Sequence record: ON184125
Origin: Escherichia phage PC3
Strand: one strand, 5' to 3'
DNA length: 64,000 nt
Positions within the stretch are counted from its first letter, which is position 1. Each line of letters starts with the position of its first letter. Positions 4,593-59,169 of the stretch are shown here, piece after piece. Under the pieces are notes generated by a model that was not told the DNA's origin, did no database searches, and was given only the letters and a program-made list of their open reading frames with translations. Position numbers and translations under genes: made by a program.

Positions 4593-5662
4593 TGGACCGC
4601 ATGCTGAAGGTTGCTAAGAAACACGATGACCAGGCTTCAGTGCTGTCCAAATCCGACGCTCTGGAACCGTCTATCATCTGTTCTACTGGTATTCCCCTGA
4701 TCGATATCGCATGGTCTGGGCGTATTGACGGTGGTCTGATCTCCGGTATCAAGATGATGGTGGGTGATTCCCGTACCTTCAAAACGATGTTCGGTCTGGT
4801 GGACGTCAAGGCGTACATGGACAAGTTCCCTGATGCTATCTGCGTCTTTGCGGACTCAGAAAAGGGTGCCAACGCCGATTACTGGACCTCTATGGGCATT
4901 GACATGGACCGCGTCCTGTACGTACCGATCGACAACGTTGAACAGACCAAGATCCGCTTGCTGCAGATCCTCCAGGAAGTCAAGAAAGGCGACCATGTTA
5001 TAATCTTCATCGACTCTATCAGCCAACTACCCTCCACCAAGGAAGTTGAAGATGCGATCAAAGGGAACGACACTCAAGACATGACCCGCGCCCGTGCCCT
5101 TAACAGCTTCTGGCGTGTCATGACTCCCGAAATCAACAGCAAAAATCTCGTGTGTGTTTGGATCAACTCCTATTACGATGAGATCGGCAACCAATATGCC
5201 GAGCCTAACATCAAAGGCGGCAAACAGGGCTTCTTATCCTCCAACTTGATCTGGTTTATCACCCGTTCTCAGGTGAAGGAAGACAAAGATCTGCTGGGTT
5301 GGAACTTCAACATAAGCATCATGAAAGGTCGCCATGTCAAAGAGAAAGCCAAGCTCCCTGTGACGGTACTGTACAACGGTGGTATTGATCGCTGGAGCGG
5401 CCTGCTTGAGATCGCTCGTGCTCTGGGTTATGTTGATATGCCGTCTTCCGGTTGGTATGTGCGTACAGCCAAGGGTGGTTTCGATCCTGAGAAGGAAAAG
5501 AAATATCAGAAGCGTCAGATGGATGATGATTTCTGGTATCCGCTGCTGGAGAATGTCAACTTCGCCGATGACGTGAAGAAAATGTTCGGTGTTTCTAACG
5601 GTACTGTTATGCCTGCTAACATGCTGGAGCAAATGGACCATGTTATCAACACAAGCGAATAA
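4577..5662 (+). CDS. uvsX: UvsX recombinase (RecA-like strand-exchange protein)
   Basis: Extended similarity to T4 UvsX from memory: FKTMFGL, FPDAICVFADSE, VIIFIDSISQLPSTKEVEDA, DMTRAR, GRHVKEKAKL, NGGIDRWSGLLEIARALGYV. Confidence 0.92.
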   Translation: MASSLMDRMLKVAKKHDDQASVLSKSDALEPSIICSTGIPLIDIAWSGRIDGGLISGIKMMVGDSRTFKTMFGLVDVKAYMDKFPDAICVFADSEKGANADYWTSMGIDMDRVLYVPIDNVEQTKIRLLQILQEVKKGDHVIIFIDSISQLPSTKEVEDAIKGNDTQDMTRARALNSFWRVMTPEINSKNLVCVWINSYYDEIGNQYAEPNIKGGKQGFLSSNLIWFITRSQVKEDKDLLGWNFNISIMKGRHVKEKAKLPVTVLYNGGIDRWSGLLEIARALGYVDMPSSGWYVRTAKGGFDPEKEKKYQKRQMDDDFWYPLLENVNFADDVKKMFGVSNGTVMPANMLEQMDHVINTSE

Positions 5663-48816: not shown

Positions 48817-49281
48817 CGCTTGTGTTCAGGGATGCTCGCTATTTCATCCCCCGTGTTCGTCATTCAGTTTACCGAACACTGCTGTATGTCACCATACAGG
48901 CCAGACTATATCACAATCTCCAGAACTGTCTAGAGATTCTCTCCATTTCGAGGCGCTTGCCCCTACTCTACTCGCTTCAGATCAGACGCTTAGTCGTCGG
49001 TCTTGCTTTCGATAGTCGTTGAACCTTGTCGCCCACTACTTCAAGGAAATCATCTGGGTTTAACCCAGCGTAACCAAAGAGTCGTTTGAAGTTTCTTGCC
49101 AACTTGCCCCACTCATTCTGGCAAACATTTCCTTCATGACCTTACTCCTTCACCGAGGTTACAGAGTATTTAGATCTTCGTGGCCGACCTTGGCTGCTGA
49201 TTATCTCTAAAGAGACTTCCCAGCAATTAAGAGAGTTATTCGATGGTTGTCGCCAACCAAAGCCCCTATGCTGCTAACTTA
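48817..49281 (-). mobile_element. group I self-splicing intron, ORF-less (~465 nt), inside the DNA polymerase gene
   Basis: Interrupts motif A between DLNSL and YPHII; 5' exon ends in U that can pair (U-G) with intronic GGGG guide; intron ends in G; GGGTTAAACCCAGATGA, ACGACTAAGCG and GATATAGTCTGGCC resemble T4 td intron P3 and P7 elements from memory. Confidence 0.7.
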
Positions 49282-53595: not shown

Positions 53596-54870
53596 TCAGG
53601 AAGGGGTGAAGTCGTTTACAGGAACTGTTTCAGGGATAGCCAGCTCAGGGCATGCTGCCTTCATCGGCTCTATGTATGGCTTGCTACCCACAATCCAGAA
53701 CAGAGTGTTCTCATTGAGCACCTCTGGCTTGTTCTGCTGGATCCAGGTCATGACCTTGCCTTCATAGCGAGGATGCAATTCGATATCACCCCACTGATAT
53801 TCCATCAGGTCATTGTAACGAACCCAATTAGTGGTGTGAAGATCCCAATGGTGTACCTCAAAGCGAGGAAGCACGACCTCTGGCTCTTCCTTCTGCCTGA
53901 TACCACTTAGGAGGCCAGCCAGAGAAACGCTCTTAGAGGCATGCTGAAGCTCCTTCTTGCCGTGTACATAGTCTGGGTTGTCGTGATAGCGACGGGTGAA
54001 GTCGACAATGTGCGGCAGATTGGCATGTTTGCCGATGATACGCAGACGGCTCTCAATGAAGTCCAGGCGGTTCGGACCGATGCCAATCAGATACACACGC
54101 TTCAGATTAGGCTTCGGATGCATTGCCAGCCCGGTCAGAATGCTTGTGCAAGAGTTGCACGATCCGGCTGGGATAATCAGATCGGTAATATGGTCAGGGA
54201 TGTTGGCAACCTGCTCGCCACCCAGCATATGGAAGCCAGCGATGCGCTCAGGAGAATGCGCTGTATGGTCGAGGGTGATACCATATTCCAGATAATACGC
54301 CTTTGGATTCTGTTGTTCGATCAACTTCTTACAGCGCGGCTGGATCGTGCTGTTGTAACCCGAGCCGACGAAGTTGAACTCACTACCAAACCAGGCTGAC
54401 ATTGCCACCATGTCGTGGTTCATACAGGTGGTGGGTTTGGTCGCTCCGAGTACAGTGGTTGTCTTGCCGCCGAAGTGCCGAGAGACTGCCGTCGCCATAG
54501 GGGACTGCGGACTACCAACGACAGTACCATGGATGATGTCAGGGGAGCCTCCAGTCTTCAGGTGCTCAACCATCAACCAGATGGCCTGGCGCAACTTACT
54601 GCCATTGATGCCCTGCTTGCCATTCATATAACAAGATAGCGGCGCGAAGTAATCTTCACGCTTGAACCAGACCTGCTGGTTAGTTTCGGGGTTGGCGACG
54701 AGTTCACACGGAGTGTGTTTGTAGAGGTAGTCTTCCCAGTGAATATGTTCACGATGAAGAGAGAGGACATCAAAAATCGTTTTGTATGGACCTTTCCCTA
54801 ACGTGTGGAACGGGATATACGTGCGGAACGGGATATATGGAGCGAGGGGTTGTGCAGCGAATTTGTTCAT
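53596..54870 (-). CDS. PLP-dependent fold-type-II enzyme (ACC deaminase / D-cysteine desulfhydrase-like family)
   Basis: KREDYF...NGSKLRQ (candidate PLP-lysine motif like KRED...GGNKxRKLE), SPQSPMATAVSRHFGGK, DLIIPAGSCNSCTSILTG, LFWIVGSKP align by eye with ACC deaminase motifs. Confidence 0.65.
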   Translation of the reverse strand: MNKFAAQPLAPYIPFRTYIPFHTLGKGPYKTIFDVLSLHREHIHWEDYLYKHTPCELVANPETNQQVWFKREDYFAPLSCYMNGKQGINGSKLRQAIWLMVEHLKTGGSPDIIHGTVVGSPQSPMATAVSRHFGGKTTTVLGATKPTTCMNHDMVAMSAWFGSEFNFVGSGYNSTIQPRCKKLIEQQNPKAYYLEYGITLDHTAHSPERIAGFHMLGGEQVANIPDHITDLIIPAGSCNSCTSILTGLAMHPKPNLKRVYLIGIGPNRLDFIESRLRIIGKHANLPHIVDFTRRYHDNPDYVHGKKELQHASKSVSLAGLLSGIRQKEEPEVVLPRFEVHHWDLHTTNWVRYNDLMEYQWGDIELHPRYEGKVMTWIQQNKPEVLNENTLFWIVGSKPYIEPMKAACPELAIPETVPVNDFTPS

Positions 54871-54939: not shown

Positions 54940-55584
54940 TTATTTCTTGAATAAACGAAGGAACTTCATCATGTTTTCCATGAAAGTCGGCTTCTTGACC
55001 TTTTGTTTTACCGGAGCGCCCTGATCATTCAGAACACGATTGGCCGGAGGAGTTGGATTCAAAGATTTAATTGCCTGATTCAAATCGGAATTATCCACGA
55101 CACCCACTTCTTCACCGACCGTAACGCATGGTTTGATTAGAACGGATTTCTTAGACTGCTCATACTGATGAGCGATATCCAGATATTTCTTGCGCTCTGC
55201 GTAGAAATCAACAGACTTGACCTTGCGACGACGCCAATTGGCGCTTTCTTCGCCATAGAAATCATATCCGTTTCTGATCAGCCAGTGCACGGCTTGTTCA
55301 AACGAACCGAAGACCATAAGTGGAGCGCCCTGGCCTTTCTCAGATTGTTCCAGGCTACCATAACCCATCAGCACAACCTGGCCTTTGATACTCAAATCAA
55401 ACGTCATACCAAGGTTCGGGATGTTTTTATCGCGGCGGAAGAACCCGCCATCACGGTAGACGTAAACAGGCGACAGGAACTCATTCAGAGTGCGCTTGAC
55501 ACCCTTGTATTGGAAGAGTCTGACAATTGGAGGGGTGTCATGGGAAATCACTTCGTTCAATTCCCAGATAGAAACATTACGCAT
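54940..55584 (-). CDS. hypothetical protein
   Basis: 214-aa ORF. Confidence 0.5.
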   Translation of the reverse strand: MRNVSIWELNEVISHDTPPIVRLFQYKGVKRTLNEFLSPVYVYRDGGFFRRDKNIPNLGMTFDLSIKGQVVLMGYGSLEQSEKGQGAPLMVFGSFEQAVHWLIRNGYDFYGEESANWRRRKVKSVDFYAERKKYLDIAHQYEQSKKSVLIKPCVTVGEEVGVVDNSDLNQAIKSLNPTPPANRVLNDQGAPVKQKVKKPTFMENMMKFLRLFKK

Positions 55585-55606
55585 TAGTGTATCCTCAAAT
55601 CTATGA

Positions 55607-55636
55607 TAGGGGGTTAACGGTTAAATTTTAAACCCC
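55607..55636 (-). terminator. hairpin GGGGGTT...AACCCCC with AT-rich loop
   Basis: 7-bp G/C stem followed by TTTG on the plus strand; lies between the tRNA region and the 55584 gene start. Confidence 0.4.
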
Positions 55637-55954
55637 CTTTGTATCATTGAACAAACTATGATAAAGGAGGACATGCTTGGGCCGATAAGAAGATAATAAG
55701 ACAGGGATAAAAAGAAAGCCGGATAGGATATCCGGCTATACCACATCGATGGGATGGGTTGAAAGACTACACGCTTGCACTGGTACTACCCTATGGGAGA
55801 GCGCGTCAGGAGTCGAACCTGAAGTCGTCGACGTAGAGAAAGCTATTTGCATTTCACTATCCTCGCCTCGATTTTCTTAACTTCCTAAACACCCCGATTA
55901 CGAGAGAGTCGACATGCACATCTTCTAACTCTTCAGGAAGTCACGCCCGTAATT

Positions 55955-56043
55955 TGGCGGAAGGTGAAGGATTCGAACCTTCGGGGGCTAAAAGCCCCAC
56001 TCGATTAGCAGTCGAGTCCCTTAAACCTCTCGGGCAACCTTCC
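55955..56043 (-). tRNA. tRNA-Ser (anticodon GCU), type II with long variable arm, CCA encoded
   Basis: Manually folded cloverleaf: acceptor GGAAGGT/ACCTTCC, anticodon stem CTCGA/TCGAG with loop CTGCTAA, variable-arm stem GGGC/GCCC, T-arm GAAGG-TTCGAAT-CCTTC. Confidence 0.8.
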
Positions 56044-56296
56044 AATTTGGACGGGCTTCACACCCGATTGAGCATTTGATCTGCCGTAGCCCAACTCCCC
56101 GCGCTTCTCAGCGCCGATTGGTTAACTGGCGACCAGTGCCTTCTGGTTCGATCTCCTGGAACTTTACAGGCTTTGCGCCCGACCATTTCTGGAAGTTGGG
56201 GCATCGTTTCCGATGCGGAGTCATCCCCATTTTATACACAGCTGGCTGCAACGCTTACTGTGTTTGTCGGAGTGTTATGTTTCACACCCCTTAACA

Positions 56297-56373
56297 TGGT
56301 GATCCTGATTGGGTTTGAACCAATGACCAATGAATTATGAGTTCACTGCTCTAACCGACTGAGCTACAGGACC
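56297..56373 (-). tRNA. tRNA with CAU anticodon (Met or lysidine-modified Ile), CCA encoded
   Basis: Acceptor GGTCCTG/CAGGATC (one G-U), D-arm GCTC-AGTCGGTTA-GAGC, anticodon loop CTCATAA, T-arm ATTGG-TTCAAAC-CCAAT. Confidence 0.75.
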
Positions 56374-58395
56374 AAATTATTGTGTACCAACCAAGGACTG
56401 TCAACCCTTTATCCCGTTTGTGTATGATCAGTTCATGCATGCCTGTTTGTGCGCCTCACGGCATGCGCTTCTGTGGGTCTTTGGCTTGCACCATAGCCTC
56501 GCCACAGGCGTTTATTTTTCCAGGGCTTTCCACTTACAAGTCTTAACCAGACCGGGATACGGGCTTGTAAGATCGGGTTGGACACAACTTTGATAGCTCT
56601 GGTACTAAAGATCCCGCGTCACCCATAGACATGGTTTATAAAATCCAGAGCCATCAAAGTTGCAACCAAATGTTACAACTCGCAGCTTCCATGTAGAAGC
56701 AACTTGTCCTCTAACGCTCGGACCAAACTAGGCTGGCTGGTTGATTCAGAGCCGCTGGTTGCTCCAGCAAGCATGGGTTGATAGCCCGGCAACATAGAAT
56801 CACCCAAAGATGAAGAACATTCATGACTCACATCACACCACGAATGGCCTGAAAGAGAATCGAACTCTTTAAATGCTCTTCATTTTGTGAACTTGAGAAT
56901 ACTACGCCTGTCTCGGGTTTCCCCTTAGTTCGGCCTCCCAGTCCTCGCCGCGCCGGGTAGCTAACCCTGATGGCTCGTCTGCTACTGAGTTCTTCTTGGT
57001 GCCCACCAGTGTCCGGAATGTGTAGGCATCGCAATCTGCAAGGCATGGTCTATTTCACCCAATGCTCTCTCAAGTTCACAAATCGAAGTGCCCTGACTCA
57101 ACAGTATGGCCCAATATGCTGTTATCGTCCACCGGATTGGCCGTCCAATTTGTAGATCAACCTTTGGGTTTAAGATAAATTGTCAAGGCACTTCGATTTG
57201 TGTGCCCTTCACCTGCCAGGGGTCAGGGCTGATGGCAAGACTTCGCTCACATCTTTCAAGATACTCGTGAGAATATCCTCAAAGATGTGGGCCGTTTTAG
57301 GGAGTCGAACCCAAATGTTCAGCCAGCGCTGACCTTACATCCCATCTGACTCAGGCAACCCGCCTCTGCTTACTCAGGAGCTTATCCCCTTTGTGCAGTC
57401 AGATGTAACGGCATTTTATTTAACAATTCATTCAACTGATAACTTCAGGGGACCACTCTCATCTCCCCACATTTCGACCGCCCGGGACGGTTTAGTGGTA
57501 CGTCACTTGGTCTGTTACATGGTAGGAGCCGATTCTCCCTCGAATTACCTCTTGTTCGTATGCCTACAAACAATTTCACAGATTGCTGACAAGTTATCAT
57601 GTGAATGAATTGTCATTGTATGCCCTGACTTATTAATCACATCTCAGGGCCGCGATGCGCCAGATTCTGTTACAGGGAACTGGAATACCCCGCTGACTTA
57701 TAGGCTATTACGCCGCCATCAGAACTTCCGAATCATTAGCATTTATTTGCTTGGTCAGTTTCTAAAAACCCGCAAAGTCACGCACAACGAAAACGAAAAC
57801 CTGTTTGAGTCCTAAACGTACCTGTCTTAGTCTCACAACGCTATGAGTGGCCAGGACTCAAACAGCTTGCCGTTCAGTGGGTTAACTATACTTTGTAACC
57901 CGTTATTGATAAACCTTTTATTTTTGTTGGTGAGGGTGTCACCATCGATTTACCGGAACTTACGCATCCGGCCTCGCCTGTTGGTGATCCTTCGAATCCG
58001 GGAAGATCAGTAGGAACTATGAATCAAGTTAATTCAACCAACAGGAACCTTGTTGCCCTTTGACGCAACATTATGAACCCTCTATGGAAGACTCATAATG
58101 TTGTGGCGTGATGGAGATTAGCGCCCCCGACCTCCCCTTATATGTTGGTGTCGACTTGCCAACGGGGTGCTCTCTATTTCTGAGCTAATCACGCTACAAC
58201 AGGGAGTTTCGTTCTCCGACGGTCAAGTGCGTCCACTGACACCATGCAAGGTGGATATTGACTTATGGAGTCGGAGTCCTCGTCCTAGGACTGTGCTCGG
58301 CCTCAACCTTTACACCGCTGGTAGCCCGACCCTTTACACCATAAAATTTACTATACTACAGCCCAGCTAATTTGAAAAGTCCTCTCCTCTTTGAG

Positions 58396-58542
58396 CTACA
58401 CTGCCCACAGCAGTGCGGACGAACCTTCACTCAAAACCGGATGCGCCGAAGTGGGCGTCTGTTTACCGGACTGATCGGGTAGACCCAGGAGAGTAAAGGT
58501 AATCCCGATCAGGAGGATGAGGAGTAACATCATGTAAAACAT
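58396..58542 (-). CDS. small hydrophobic peptide (48 aa), below the ORF-track size cut-off
   Basis: Strong SD GGAGGG 6-8 nt upstream of ATG; MFYMMLLLILLIGITFTLLGL predicted TM helix. Confidence 0.35.
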   Translation of the reverse strand: MFYMMLLLILLIGITFTLLGLPDQSGKQTPTSAHPVLSEGSSALLWAV

Positions 58543-58599
58543 AGTGTTCCCTCCCTTCCATGCAACTAACTTTACTGCAATTATTTATTGAATAAAGCG

Positions 58600-59169
58600 T
58601 TATTTTAACACTTCTAACTTCACAATACGACGCAGAAGGTAAACATATTCGCCAGCAGCTTCATGCGTCATATAATGGGTAGAAGGTGTGGAATGAGTGT
58701 TCTGGGTTTCTTTTAATCCAACGCGTTCAGCCCAACCATTAATAGAGTTCCCATAGAAACCGATAATCGCGCCAAAATAAATGCGCCCGCTTTCTGGCTC
58801 TAAAACGTAGTTGACAGTGAAGCAAATGTCAGAACGAATAGACTCCAGTTTCATACCAACACGACCTTCAGAGAATTCGTTACGAACATATAAATGACGG
58901 AAGCGATCGCGCCGTGCTTGTGATGATTCTTCCAATTCTTGTCGAAGTGAAGAAGTTATGTCAATATTAAATGAAAATGTTGGATTTCGTAAATCAGAAC
59001 GGGCCAACTCTAACGCAGATTCAATAACGCGACGGAAATTGATACTTTTACCTGTCAGGCGTTTCACTTCATCGGTGATTGTTTCAAAAGGGATTTTCGT
59101 GGCGCGTTCCCCTTCGTATTTTGCTAACAAAGGAACAATGTGTTTCATGATTGCTGTGTTAATGTGCAT
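58600..59169 (-). CDS. hypothetical protein
   Basis: 189-aa ORF. Confidence 0.5.
   Translation of the reverse strand: MHINTAIMKHIVPLLAKYEGERATKIPFETITDEVKRLTGKSINFRRVIESALELARSDLRNPTFSFNIDITSSLRQELEESSQARRDRFRHLYVRNEFSEGRVGMKLESIRSDICFTVNYVLEPESGRIYFGAIIGFYGNSINGWAERVGLKETQNTHSTPSTHYMTHEAAGEYVYLLRRIVKLEVLK

Follow-up and report, generated by a model that had tools for sequence, protein, structure and literature searches.

We analysed a gene-poor stretch in the genome of Escherichia phage PC3 (sequence record ON184125) and, within it, an RNA at positions 57804-57607 that resembles one part of a transfer-messenger RNA (tmRNA). Below, "the window" is the whole piece of DNA studied, 64,000 nucleotides long, and features are on the minus strand unless stated otherwise. 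In a six-frame scan, positions 55588-58599 (3012 nt) contained no open reading frame (ORF) of 80 aa or more. This is the largest such gap in the window; the runners-up measure only 656 and 577 nt. The GC content is ordinary (0.484 versus 0.491 window-wide), and the longest ORF between 55640 and 58560 has 72 aa. Hence, the 2.9-kb ORF desert of the original prediction, made from the letters of the sequence, is real. Its upper edge is not part of it, since a 48-aa ORF with a strong Shine-Dalgarno sequence (GGAGGG) lies at 58396-58542(-). The non-coding stretch proper is therefore ~55590-58395. The product of this ORF has a hydrophobic N-terminus and no Pfam match, and relatives annotate it as a coding sequence (hypothetical protein). 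This is probably a genuine small gene bordering the desert, outside the island of RNA genes described here. Positions 55600-58600 are 100% identical to Escherichia phage PH4 (ON184126.1; Ackermannviridae, Aglimvirinae), the record of which has no annotation across the matching stretch.

ORF-poor DNA of 1.5-2.5 kb occupies the same place in every Ackermannviridae genus sampled (Agtrevirus, Kuttervirus, Taipeivirus, a Limestonevirus-like Dickeya phage, Miltonvirus and Nezavisimistyvirus). The position is constant, between a variable set of tRNA genes and a 190-aa gene adjoining baseplate gp6. In PC3, the contents are two tRNAs, four tRNA-like RNAs (E1-E4), several covarying hairpins and one tmRNA-derived RNA. 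The two intact minus-strand tRNAs of the original prediction are called by both ARAGORN and Rfam: tRNA-Ser(GCU) at 55955-56043 (56 bits) and tRNA-CAU at 56297-56373 (70.6 bits). For the latter, Met is called and Ile2 is not excluded. Neither program found another canonical tRNA across the region. Rfam gave further scores in the tRNA and tmRNA families, all of which are below the gathering thresholds. We also scanned 55500-58700 for T-arms, defined as a 5-bp stem, with one mismatch allowed, closing a T-loop-like 7-nt loop. We found seven motifs, all of them on the minus strand. A TTC loop is present in five, namely the two tRNAs and the three T-arm-like hairpins originally noticed, which start at 55822, 56869 and 57314. 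All three hairpins carry a TTCGAYT loop, and the stem at 57314 contains a U-U mismatch.

Two alternative readings of the stretch can be addressed at this point. The first is a decaying tRNA array, or neutral spacer, in which only the two tRNAs function. Loss has certainly occurred. Compared with the closest tRNA-richer relative (L002), ~418 nt with tRNA-Tyr, tRNA-Asn and tRNA-Trp are replaced by ~22 nt at 56266-56289, as mapped by BLAST and from the tRNA positions. Half of one tRNA-like gene is also missing from the window and PH4, and tRNA content differs among relatives. However, real loss is confined to these two events, the deletion of the Tyr-Asn-Trp cassette and the internal deletion of one tRNA-like gene. 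The remaining elements are 75-97% identical across genera, with compensatory changes, and modules are shared with unrelated phage families at 72-96% identity. In addition, strand bias is strict and one reading frame, described below, is under purifying selection. The decaying-array reading is largely refuted, and we consider it highly improbable. The T-arm fragments, which might have been degenerate tRNA genes, instead sit in elements conserved in related genera.

The second alternative is a cluster of very small protein-coding genes. Hypothetical proteins of 30-65 aa are annotated here in Magnus, SeKF_19 and other phages, and the 48-aa ORF has a good ribosome-binding site. Yet the annotated short ORFs disagree in position and strand, even between close relatives, no ORF of at least 30 aa crosses the tmRNA-like RNA, and conservation tracks helices rather than reading frames. 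We give this reading very little credence too. From conservation across the Ackermannviridae, and from compensatory changes within the elements, we conclude that a conserved set of stable-RNA genes, read on the minus strand, forms an island here, and that the stretch is not decaying spacer. Hence, of the options first raised, additional structured RNAs and tRNA genes with unusual features are those that stand. More generally, ORF deserts beside phage tRNA genes are mosaics of exchangeable RNA modules that annotators fill with spurious small ORFs.

A tmRNA-like RNA with its own tag frame

The RNA at 57804-57607, which we call the head, comprises an arm antisense to host tmRNA, a linker, a tag reading frame and two pseudoknots. 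It has no T-arm, is undetectable in a cloverleaf search, and had escaped the original prediction. Covariance model R1, built from 36 phage copies only, scores the head at 194 bits. The model finds exactly one copy per locus in 38 loci (106-219 bits) and no head in the Dickeya phage. Like tmRNA, the head has an upstream AUAAAU context, a resume codon of the type GCN, a tag of 10 codons that lacks a start codon, and two H-type pseudoknots.

The tag frame at 57740-57705 opens with the resume codon GCU (57740). Read on the minus strand, the sequence is AUAAAU GCU AAU GAU UCG GAA GUU CUG AUG GCG GCG UAA UAG, which specifies ANDSEVLMAA followed by two stop codons. The E. coli tmRNA tag is ANDENYALAA, and tags in other phages include ANDDVVLMAA, ANEERFLMAA and ANDSEMRVAA. 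A second scan of IMG/VR raised the total to 146 copies, among which there are 39 different tag-frame sequences; the tags, counted over 141 copies, number 22. Every tag has 10 codons and the form AN(D/E)xxxxx(A/V)A, so that each starts AN(D/E) and ends A-A or V-A, followed by UAA, UAG or UGA. Phage tags keep the N-D and the C-terminal alanines that are typical of degradation tags. We counted codon changes along a minimum spanning tree. In the tag frame, 32 of 52 single-base changes were synonymous, against an expected 23% (binomial p=2e-9); in the other two frames, the counts were 9/64 and 13/60. Non-synonymous changes in the tag were conservative (D/E, M/V/L/I, Y/F and A/V). We conclude from these codon comparisons that the tag frame is under selection at the level of the peptide. 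A micro-ORF initiated at a start codon was considered and rejected: the AUG overlapping the resume codon becomes CUG, ACG or UCG in Kuttervirus, and there are in-frame stop codons upstream. Decoding without a start codon is a hallmark of trans-translation. If the tag is decoded in this way, the tRNA-like partner must come from elsewhere.

Two pseudoknots follow the tag. The first, PK2 (57692-57660), has the stem CGGGG/CCCUG and a CCAG loop that pairs with a downstream CUGG. Across copies, the general form is a CNNGG/CCNNG stem and a CCNN loop paired with downstream NNGG; the two helices are 100% and 96% paired. The second, PK3 (57657-57622), combines CAUC/GAUG with the stem GGCCCUGA/UCAGGGC and a near-invariant loop sequence, UGAUUAAUAA. 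Its general form is CAN/NUG across a variable stem, with UGAUUAAUAA in the loop, and its helices are 95% and 84% paired. Note that pairing percentages are from an Infernal alignment of 39 sequences. In PK2 and PK3 together, 18 pairs have changed on both sides, and sliding the 3' partners by 1-3 columns reduced pairing to 40-52%. There is also a weakly supported, candidate 4-bp hairpin around the stop codon (helix 5): 72% of it is paired, and two of its pairs show double-sided changes. The third base of the last tag codon tends to change with the base that would face it in this hairpin. An all-versus-all scan for column covariation was swamped by phylogenetic signal, and resolved no PK1-like fold in the 5' part of the head.

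Similarity between the head and genuine tmRNA is reciprocal by covariance model. In one direction, R1 matches ARAGORN-verified tmRNAs at the tag region, with 30.6 bits for locus L066 (E=4e-7), 22.8 for L083 and 18-22 for others. Within a 901-nt locus, it selects nt 57-198 of E. coli ssrA. In the other direction, we used the Rfam tmRNA family RF00023 and the permuted families RF01849, RF01850 and RF04321. Weak same-strand matches to permuted, alpha or beta tmRNA were obtained for the window and for all the unrelated phage groups, listed below, that carry the element; in the window, tmRNA_permuted scores 21.3 bits (threshold 47) and alpha_tmRNA 18.2 (threshold 50). The motif CAGAUAG(G/U)UUUCG..GCGAC, the tag region and the first pseudoknot also align with the coding pieces of real two-piece tmRNAs. 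A pattern search with the tag region retrieved ~90 bacterial loci, and those checked were standard or permuted tmRNAs according to ARAGORN. Our initial sequence pattern had no match among 185,579 species representatives. As a side observation, L083 2502-2983 contains a complete two-piece tmRNA, with the tag ANDSIFAMAA, a G3:U70 pair and an ACCA end, in a phage-like tRNA array (Gln, Met, Asn, Met, Gly). The contig is binned with a Methanoregula metagenome-assembled genome, and this archaeal assignment is almost certainly mis-binning.

The likeness to the coding piece of beta-proteobacterial two-piece tmRNA is extensive. Shared parts are the AUAAAU-GCA resume context, the start-less 10-codon AND...AA tag, the stem and loop layout of the first pseudoknot after the tag, the terminal hairpin with a UGAUAAUGA-like loop, and the motif given above. 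The 5' ends differ. Real two-piece coding pieces read GGGGnnG-ACCnGGUUUCGAC-...-CAGAUAGGUUUCGGGGCGAC, whereas phage copies start at CAGAUAGUUUUCGUGAGCGAC. The phage element thus begins ~30 nt later; it has neither the D-loop analogue nor helix P2a, the 5' acceptor strand is missing, and no acceptor piece lies upstream. In place of the missing 5' parts is an arm antisense to a different tmRNA, the one-piece molecule of the host. A further difference is that long helices with hypervariable tips follow the phage element. A TTGACA-17-TAnnnT promoter stops just a few bases short of the first conserved base in Drexler-like phages and Sashavirus. In Schitoviridae, an intrinsic terminator lies ~100 nt past the second pseudoknot. 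The putative head RNA would start near GAUAGUUUUCG, which in the window is downstream of 57885, where the promoter-like site TTATCA-16-TATAGT ends (57912-57885). The block around this site is kept even in Dickeya phage phiDP23.1, which has no head.

Does the missing domain lie nearby? A complete but unconventional multi-piece tmRNA could be assembled if E3, E4 or a 'tRNA-Ala'-like gene of Kuttervirus supplied the tRNA-like domain, joined to the head via GUUGU/ACAAC boxes. Elements with acceptor stems, T-arms and encoded CCA do flank the head in Ackermannviridae. Furthermore, real two-piece acceptor pieces start UUGUUGU and coding pieces carry CACAAC; heads are likewise followed by CACAAC boxes. 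The Kuttervirus gene is 67 nt long and lies intact just upstream of the head (L003 4446-4512(-); also L009), where some records call it 'tRNA-Ala'. Its acceptor is GGUGAGG/CCUCGCC, which includes U3:G70; A73 is present, the T-arm is good, and the anticodon region is truncated. In the window and PH4, however, the middle of this gene is deleted, leaving the relic GGTGACACCCTCACCA at 57943-57928, recognised by comparison with SeKF_19. The G3:U70 alanine identity pair is absent from the folds of all of E1-E4. ARAGORN, run for one-piece and permuted forms, found no tmRNA in the window or in 152 loci; control loci were positive. No same-strand tRNA occurs within 1 kb in 108 of the 146 copies. We also looked for a hidden tRNA-like domain using T-arm scans, 'CCACCA' motifs, and inspection of promoter-to-terminator units in Schitoviridae and Drexler-like phages. 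Only ordinary tRNAs or self-contained tRNA-like elements were found, and the inspected Schitoviridae copies are promoter-to-terminator units without a tRNA-like gene. A complete multi-piece tmRNA therefore seems improbable to us. From its structure and alignments, we conclude that the RNA at 57804-57607 is derived from the coding piece of a two-piece tmRNA, without the tRNA-like domain.

The element is not specific to Ackermannviridae. A sensitive BLASTN search with 56380-58600 matched 57616-57794 to unannotated intergenic DNA, at 72-81% identity, in unrelated groups: ~47-kb siphoviruses (Caminolopintovirus, Drexler-like), ~71-kb Schitoviridae, Sashavirus and Chaseviridae. The 146 loci are in Drexler-like phages, Schitoviridae, Chaseviridae, Sashavirus phages, P1 and lambdoid prophages. 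In P1 and P7, the element lies between dmt and tRNA-Asn, within the leader of the ban operon, which C1 represses. A curated 'dicF-like region' (715-816) lies directly upstream of the unannotated P1 element (~814-1005 of NC_005856, L045). In lambdoid prophages, the element sits between the Q antiterminator/tR' terminator and the holin gene. A 484-nt query, consisting of the element and downstream modules, matched 718 of 5426 complete E. coli genomes (554 plasmid and 220 chromosomal places), with part of these matches covering downstream modules only. The query never matched ssrA itself. Recent capture of host ssrA was rejected as an origin, as BLASTN against the same 5426 genomes matches only prophages and P1-like plasmids. 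We found no description of such an element in the literature, and it appears to be an undescribed, widespread variant of tmRNA. The element is unannotated in well-studied genomes, including the P1 ban leader, the lambdoid late leader and Vi1-like therapeutic phages.

Complementarity to host tmRNA

The first ~43 nt of the head form the 5' arm (57804-57762), which is antisense to nt 67-109 of enterobacterial tmRNA. With E. coli tmRNA, the reverse complement is in three blocks: UAGUUUUCGU pairs with ACGAAAACUA (codons 3-6), GCGACU with AGUCGC (the resume codon), and UUGCGGnUUUUUA with UAAAAAGCCGCAA (the 3' strand of PK1 and the linker). The target spans the 3' strand of PK1, the linker, the resume codon and codons 1-6. 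We assessed pairing by 14-mer matching and by folding the arm alone; folding full-length head-ssrA duplexes gave giant, meaningless duplexes (z about 0). The predicted duplex for the window arm has an energy of -40.9 kcal/mol, compared with -31.4 for shuffled arms (z -3.4), and 0/40 shuffles were as low. For 70 unique arms, the mean on E. coli tmRNA was -35.6 kcal/mol; on reversed tmRNA, and on four unrelated tmRNAs, it was -26 to -30. The best site starts at nt 62-69 for 60 of these 70 arms. Arms do not pair with their own tag window (-19.9, compared with -35.0 on the host window), and the equivalent segment of genuine tmRNAs has no self-complementarity (z about 0). Where arms commonly vary, from C to U opposite G or from A to G opposite U, pairing is preserved as a wobble. 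The named hosts of element-carrying phages are all Enterobacterales. E. coli, Hafnia and Rosenbergiella have nearly the same target, the one difference being an extra A (the latter two ssrA genes were located through SmpB genes). We conclude that the predicted complementarity of the arm to host tmRNA is statistically supported and position-specific.

How might such an RNA act? We propose that, during infection, the head RNA pairs with host tmRNA over the resume region and so masks the host tag template. The head would then present its own template beside the host alanyl-tRNA-like domain and SmpB, and ribosomes rescued by trans-translation would append a phage-specified tag. Put differently, the arrangement would parallel that of natural two-piece tmRNAs, with the head as a 'third piece' held non-covalently. 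Docking could instead merely block the host template. We prefer template replacement because of the codon-level constraint on the tag frame. Taken as a whole, a conserved RNA island containing an RNA from a tmRNA coding piece, which docks on host tmRNA and substitutes its own template, is the best explanation that we can offer, and one in which we have moderate confidence. The broader claim is more tentative. Possibly, a 'tag-swap' RNA in at least six enterobacterial phage lineages, as well as P1 and lambdoid prophages, makes a chimeric multi-piece tmRNA with a tag of the phage's choosing.

The main competitor to template replacement is a pure antisense inhibitor or decoy. Such an RNA would bind host tmRNA, or titrate S1, RNase R or SmpB, to shut down trans-translation, and the tag would never be decoded. 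The same arm complementarity also supports this reading. There is also a precedent, since mycobacteriophage DS6A carries an inhibitory partial tmRNA with the tRNA-like domain only (PMC4131195, PMC11915505). However, a decoy needs no excess of synonymous and conservative changes limited to the tag frame. Neither does it need a fixed length of 10 codons, conserved stop codons, or the tendency of the last codon's third base to co-change within the weakly supported stop-codon hairpin. We regard a pure inhibitor as unlikely, though less so than a complete multi-piece tmRNA.

Several points weigh against docking with template substitution. Some concern the arm. Duplex energies disregard intramolecular structure, and host PK1 would have to open for the duplex to form. 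In Ackermannviridae, the start of the arm sits within a hairpin; this 13-bp structure (57801-57865), specific to the family, precedes and overlaps the arm start. A candidate 5' helix inside the head (78% paired) would be in competition with the arm. Opposite tmRNA G74, in the centre of the arm, there is usually a mismatch or bulge. Arms of L028, L037 and a Yersinia phage are no better than shuffles on E. coli tmRNA. The target is the same across hosts, so arm-host co-variation is uninformative. Other points concern tmRNA identity and mechanism. Rfam tmRNA scores in other phages are at most 29.4 bits, and all Rfam tmRNA scores are below the gathering thresholds. Finally, we know of no case in which a ribosome changes over to a template that nothing but such a duplex keeps in place.

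Known systems share parts of the proposed arrangement. Complete two-piece tmRNAs also occur in phages, such as OM43 phage Melnitz (PMC9004378). The surveys of tmRNA that we consulted list complete phage tmRNAs and the form with the tRNA-like domain only, DS6A; the converse form, a coding piece only, is not described in them (PMC4131195, PMC11915505, PMC9004378). The DS6A mini-tmRNA and the head are both phage-borne tmRNA halves that presumably act on host trans-translation rather than autonomously. They are opposite halves: DS6A has a tRNA-like domain without a tag frame, while the head has a tag frame and pseudoknots without a tRNA-like domain. The head also resembles trans-acting small RNAs and RNA sponges of prophages. 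These similarly have a short arm complementary to a host RNA. As with prophage small RNAs, phage promoters would drive the element, which is under C1-repressed Pban in P1 and lies downstream of pR'/tR' in lambdoid prophages. Unlike these regulators, the target would be tmRNA, and not an mRNA or small RNA, and the effector part would be a translatable template of the tmRNA type.

If correct, the proposed template replacement would be the first case known of a natural RNA that reprograms trans-translation. Phages are known for complete tmRNAs and, rarely, for the tRNA-like half by itself; a widespread form with the message half only, peptide-level selection and an antisense arm would be a new viral intervention in ribosome rescue and protein quality control. 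Our comparisons suggest that many enterobacterial phages tamper with ribosome rescue. Nearly all bacteria have tmRNA, which is also a drug target. Given matches in 718 of the 5426 E. coli genomes, the idea is directly testable in existing strains.

Other elements and neighbours of the island

Downstream of the head in PC3 is a long-helix module, ACAAUGACAAUU...AAUUGUUUGU (57620-57563), identified by inspection of the sequence, with the helix paired by hand only. It corresponds to CACAACAGGUAAGAGC...GCUCUUUCCGUUGUG modules with hypervariable tips in other phages. One to three long helices (CACAACAGGUAAGAGCAUUG ... CAGUGCUCUUUCCGUUGUGGUG) lie downstream of the head in L005, L008, L012, L016, L017, L024, L029, L043 and L044. 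These have conserved stems, hypervariable tips of 35-85 nt and CACAAC/GUUGUG links, and are followed by pseudoknot-like hairpins.

The three T-arm-like hairpins first noticed belong to E1, E2 and E3. E1 (55948-55794), found by T-arm scan and minimum free energy folding, comes directly after tRNA-Ser. It has a 7-bp acceptor, GGGCGUG/CGCGCUC, a long helix, a T-arm at 55822-55806 and the 3' end UCCCA; an alifold consensus of 7 relatives contains 4 double-sided changes. The counterpart in SeKF_19 is annotated 'tRNA-OTHER', in this one relative only. E2 (~56935-56845) is weakly tRNA-like, with a perfect T-arm (56869-56853) and merely 4-5 acceptor pairs. E3 (57412-57288) is 125 nt long and folds as a four-way junction, with its T-arm at 57314-57298, the acceptor GCCGUU/AACGGC, an encoded CCA, a 9-bp long arm and an extra arm. 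It is kept in 10 relatives (Agtrevirus, Kuttervirus and Taipeivirus), where all changes are one-sided. In both E1 and E3, long helices replace the anticodon arm. E4 (58194-58105), which like the head had gone unnoticed, is a tRNA-like cloverleaf with BLAST matches in MAM1 and Bue1. Its acceptor is GCGUGAU/AUCACGC, the D-arm is normal, the T-loop is atypical, and GUUGU and ACAAC flank it. The 10-nt 'anticodon' loop is CAAGUCGACA in most relatives and GAGUCGACA in two. An alignment of 10 relatives shows compensatory changes in two arms.

None of E1-E4 qualifies as a canonical tRNA (RF00005); only E4 scores at all, with 24.2 bits against a threshold of 29. ARAGORN called no tRNA at E1-E4 in the window, nor at E2-E4 positions in any relative scanned. 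Because they are conserved in related genera, and because no tRNA is called at E2-E4 in relatives, we conclude from these alignments that E1-E4 are stable non-canonical forms and not recent pseudogenes. They are probably signals for RNase P or CCA-type processing, or stable RNAs. The Rfam models GOLLD and ROOL had no match, even at E up to 10. The tRNA cluster of phage T4 contains stable tRNA-like RNAs, species 1 and 2 (rnaC/rnaD). E1-E4 resemble these in general form, being RNAs of 90-155 nt, with acceptor- and T-arm-like ends, inside a phage tRNA cluster. They differ in being specific to Ackermannviridae. In Serratia phage MAM1 (L041), a 92-nt 'tRNA-Cys(aca)' (4641-4732(-)) is called between the promoter block of the head and the homologue of E4, and its unusual length hints at one more non-canonical tRNA-like gene.

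Two hairpins lie between tRNA-CAU and E2. That at 56534-56572, part of the original prediction, stays paired in 13 relatives despite double-sided changes. Over 49 nt, it shares 96% identity with the spacer between tRNA-Thr and tRNA-Asn in the unrelated Klebsiella phage KP13-26. A longer hairpin of ~19 bp (56567-56676) has 4 double-sided changes by alifold; this palindrome yields spurious Rfam microRNA matches on both strands.

Modules of the island also appear to move. Over blocks 56682-57204 and 57271-57618, identity to Klebsiella phage Magnus (Taipeivirus, L038) reaches ~97%, whereas it is 74-77% in the flanking DNA. High-identity blocks amid such flanks imply recent exchange of RNA modules between genera. 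Within the first block, a 16-nt inverted repeat, an exact reverse complement (57077-57092 with 57187-57202), encloses ~95 nt; the repeat block (57077-57202) is 97% identical to Magnus, against ~75% for its flanks. Compared with L002, the window has a ~200-nt insertion between 57415 and 57676. A leader or promoter-like module at 57519-57413 also occurs in Salmonella phage As2, in the leader of its tRNA array; the match covers 57426-57519. Separately, 56727-56807 (81 nt) matches Klebsiella phage K17alpha62 (Schitoviridae, L145) at 84% identity, within a partial/pseudo 'virion RNA polymerase' feature.

Candidate transcription signals on the minus strand complete the island. The promoter-like site TTTTCA-17-TATAGT (58378-58350) is at the upstream end, and TTATCA-18-TAAAAT (57442-57413) forms part of the leader module. 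A sigma70-like promoter, TTGACA-17-AATAAT (56404-56376; 11/12 consensus matches), lies directly upstream of tRNA-CAU. An intrinsic terminator with a 9-bp GC-rich stem and a T-run (55737-55717) closes the island, and is the sole terminator-like site in 55500-58700.

The flanking proteins of 189 aa and 214 aa have no Pfam match, and no SmpB-like partner adjoins the island. Downstream, a 424-aa protein (53596-54870(-)) has a weak, sub-cut-off match to Pfam PALP (pyridoxal phosphate-dependent enzyme), and relatives annotate it as threonine dehydratase. Elsewhere in the window, a group I intron (48882-49269(-); Rfam RF00028, 58.6 bits) splits the gene for a family-B DNA polymerase. The upstream ORF (50699-49266) encodes the exonuclease domain and the downstream ORF (48863-47235) the polymerase domain.

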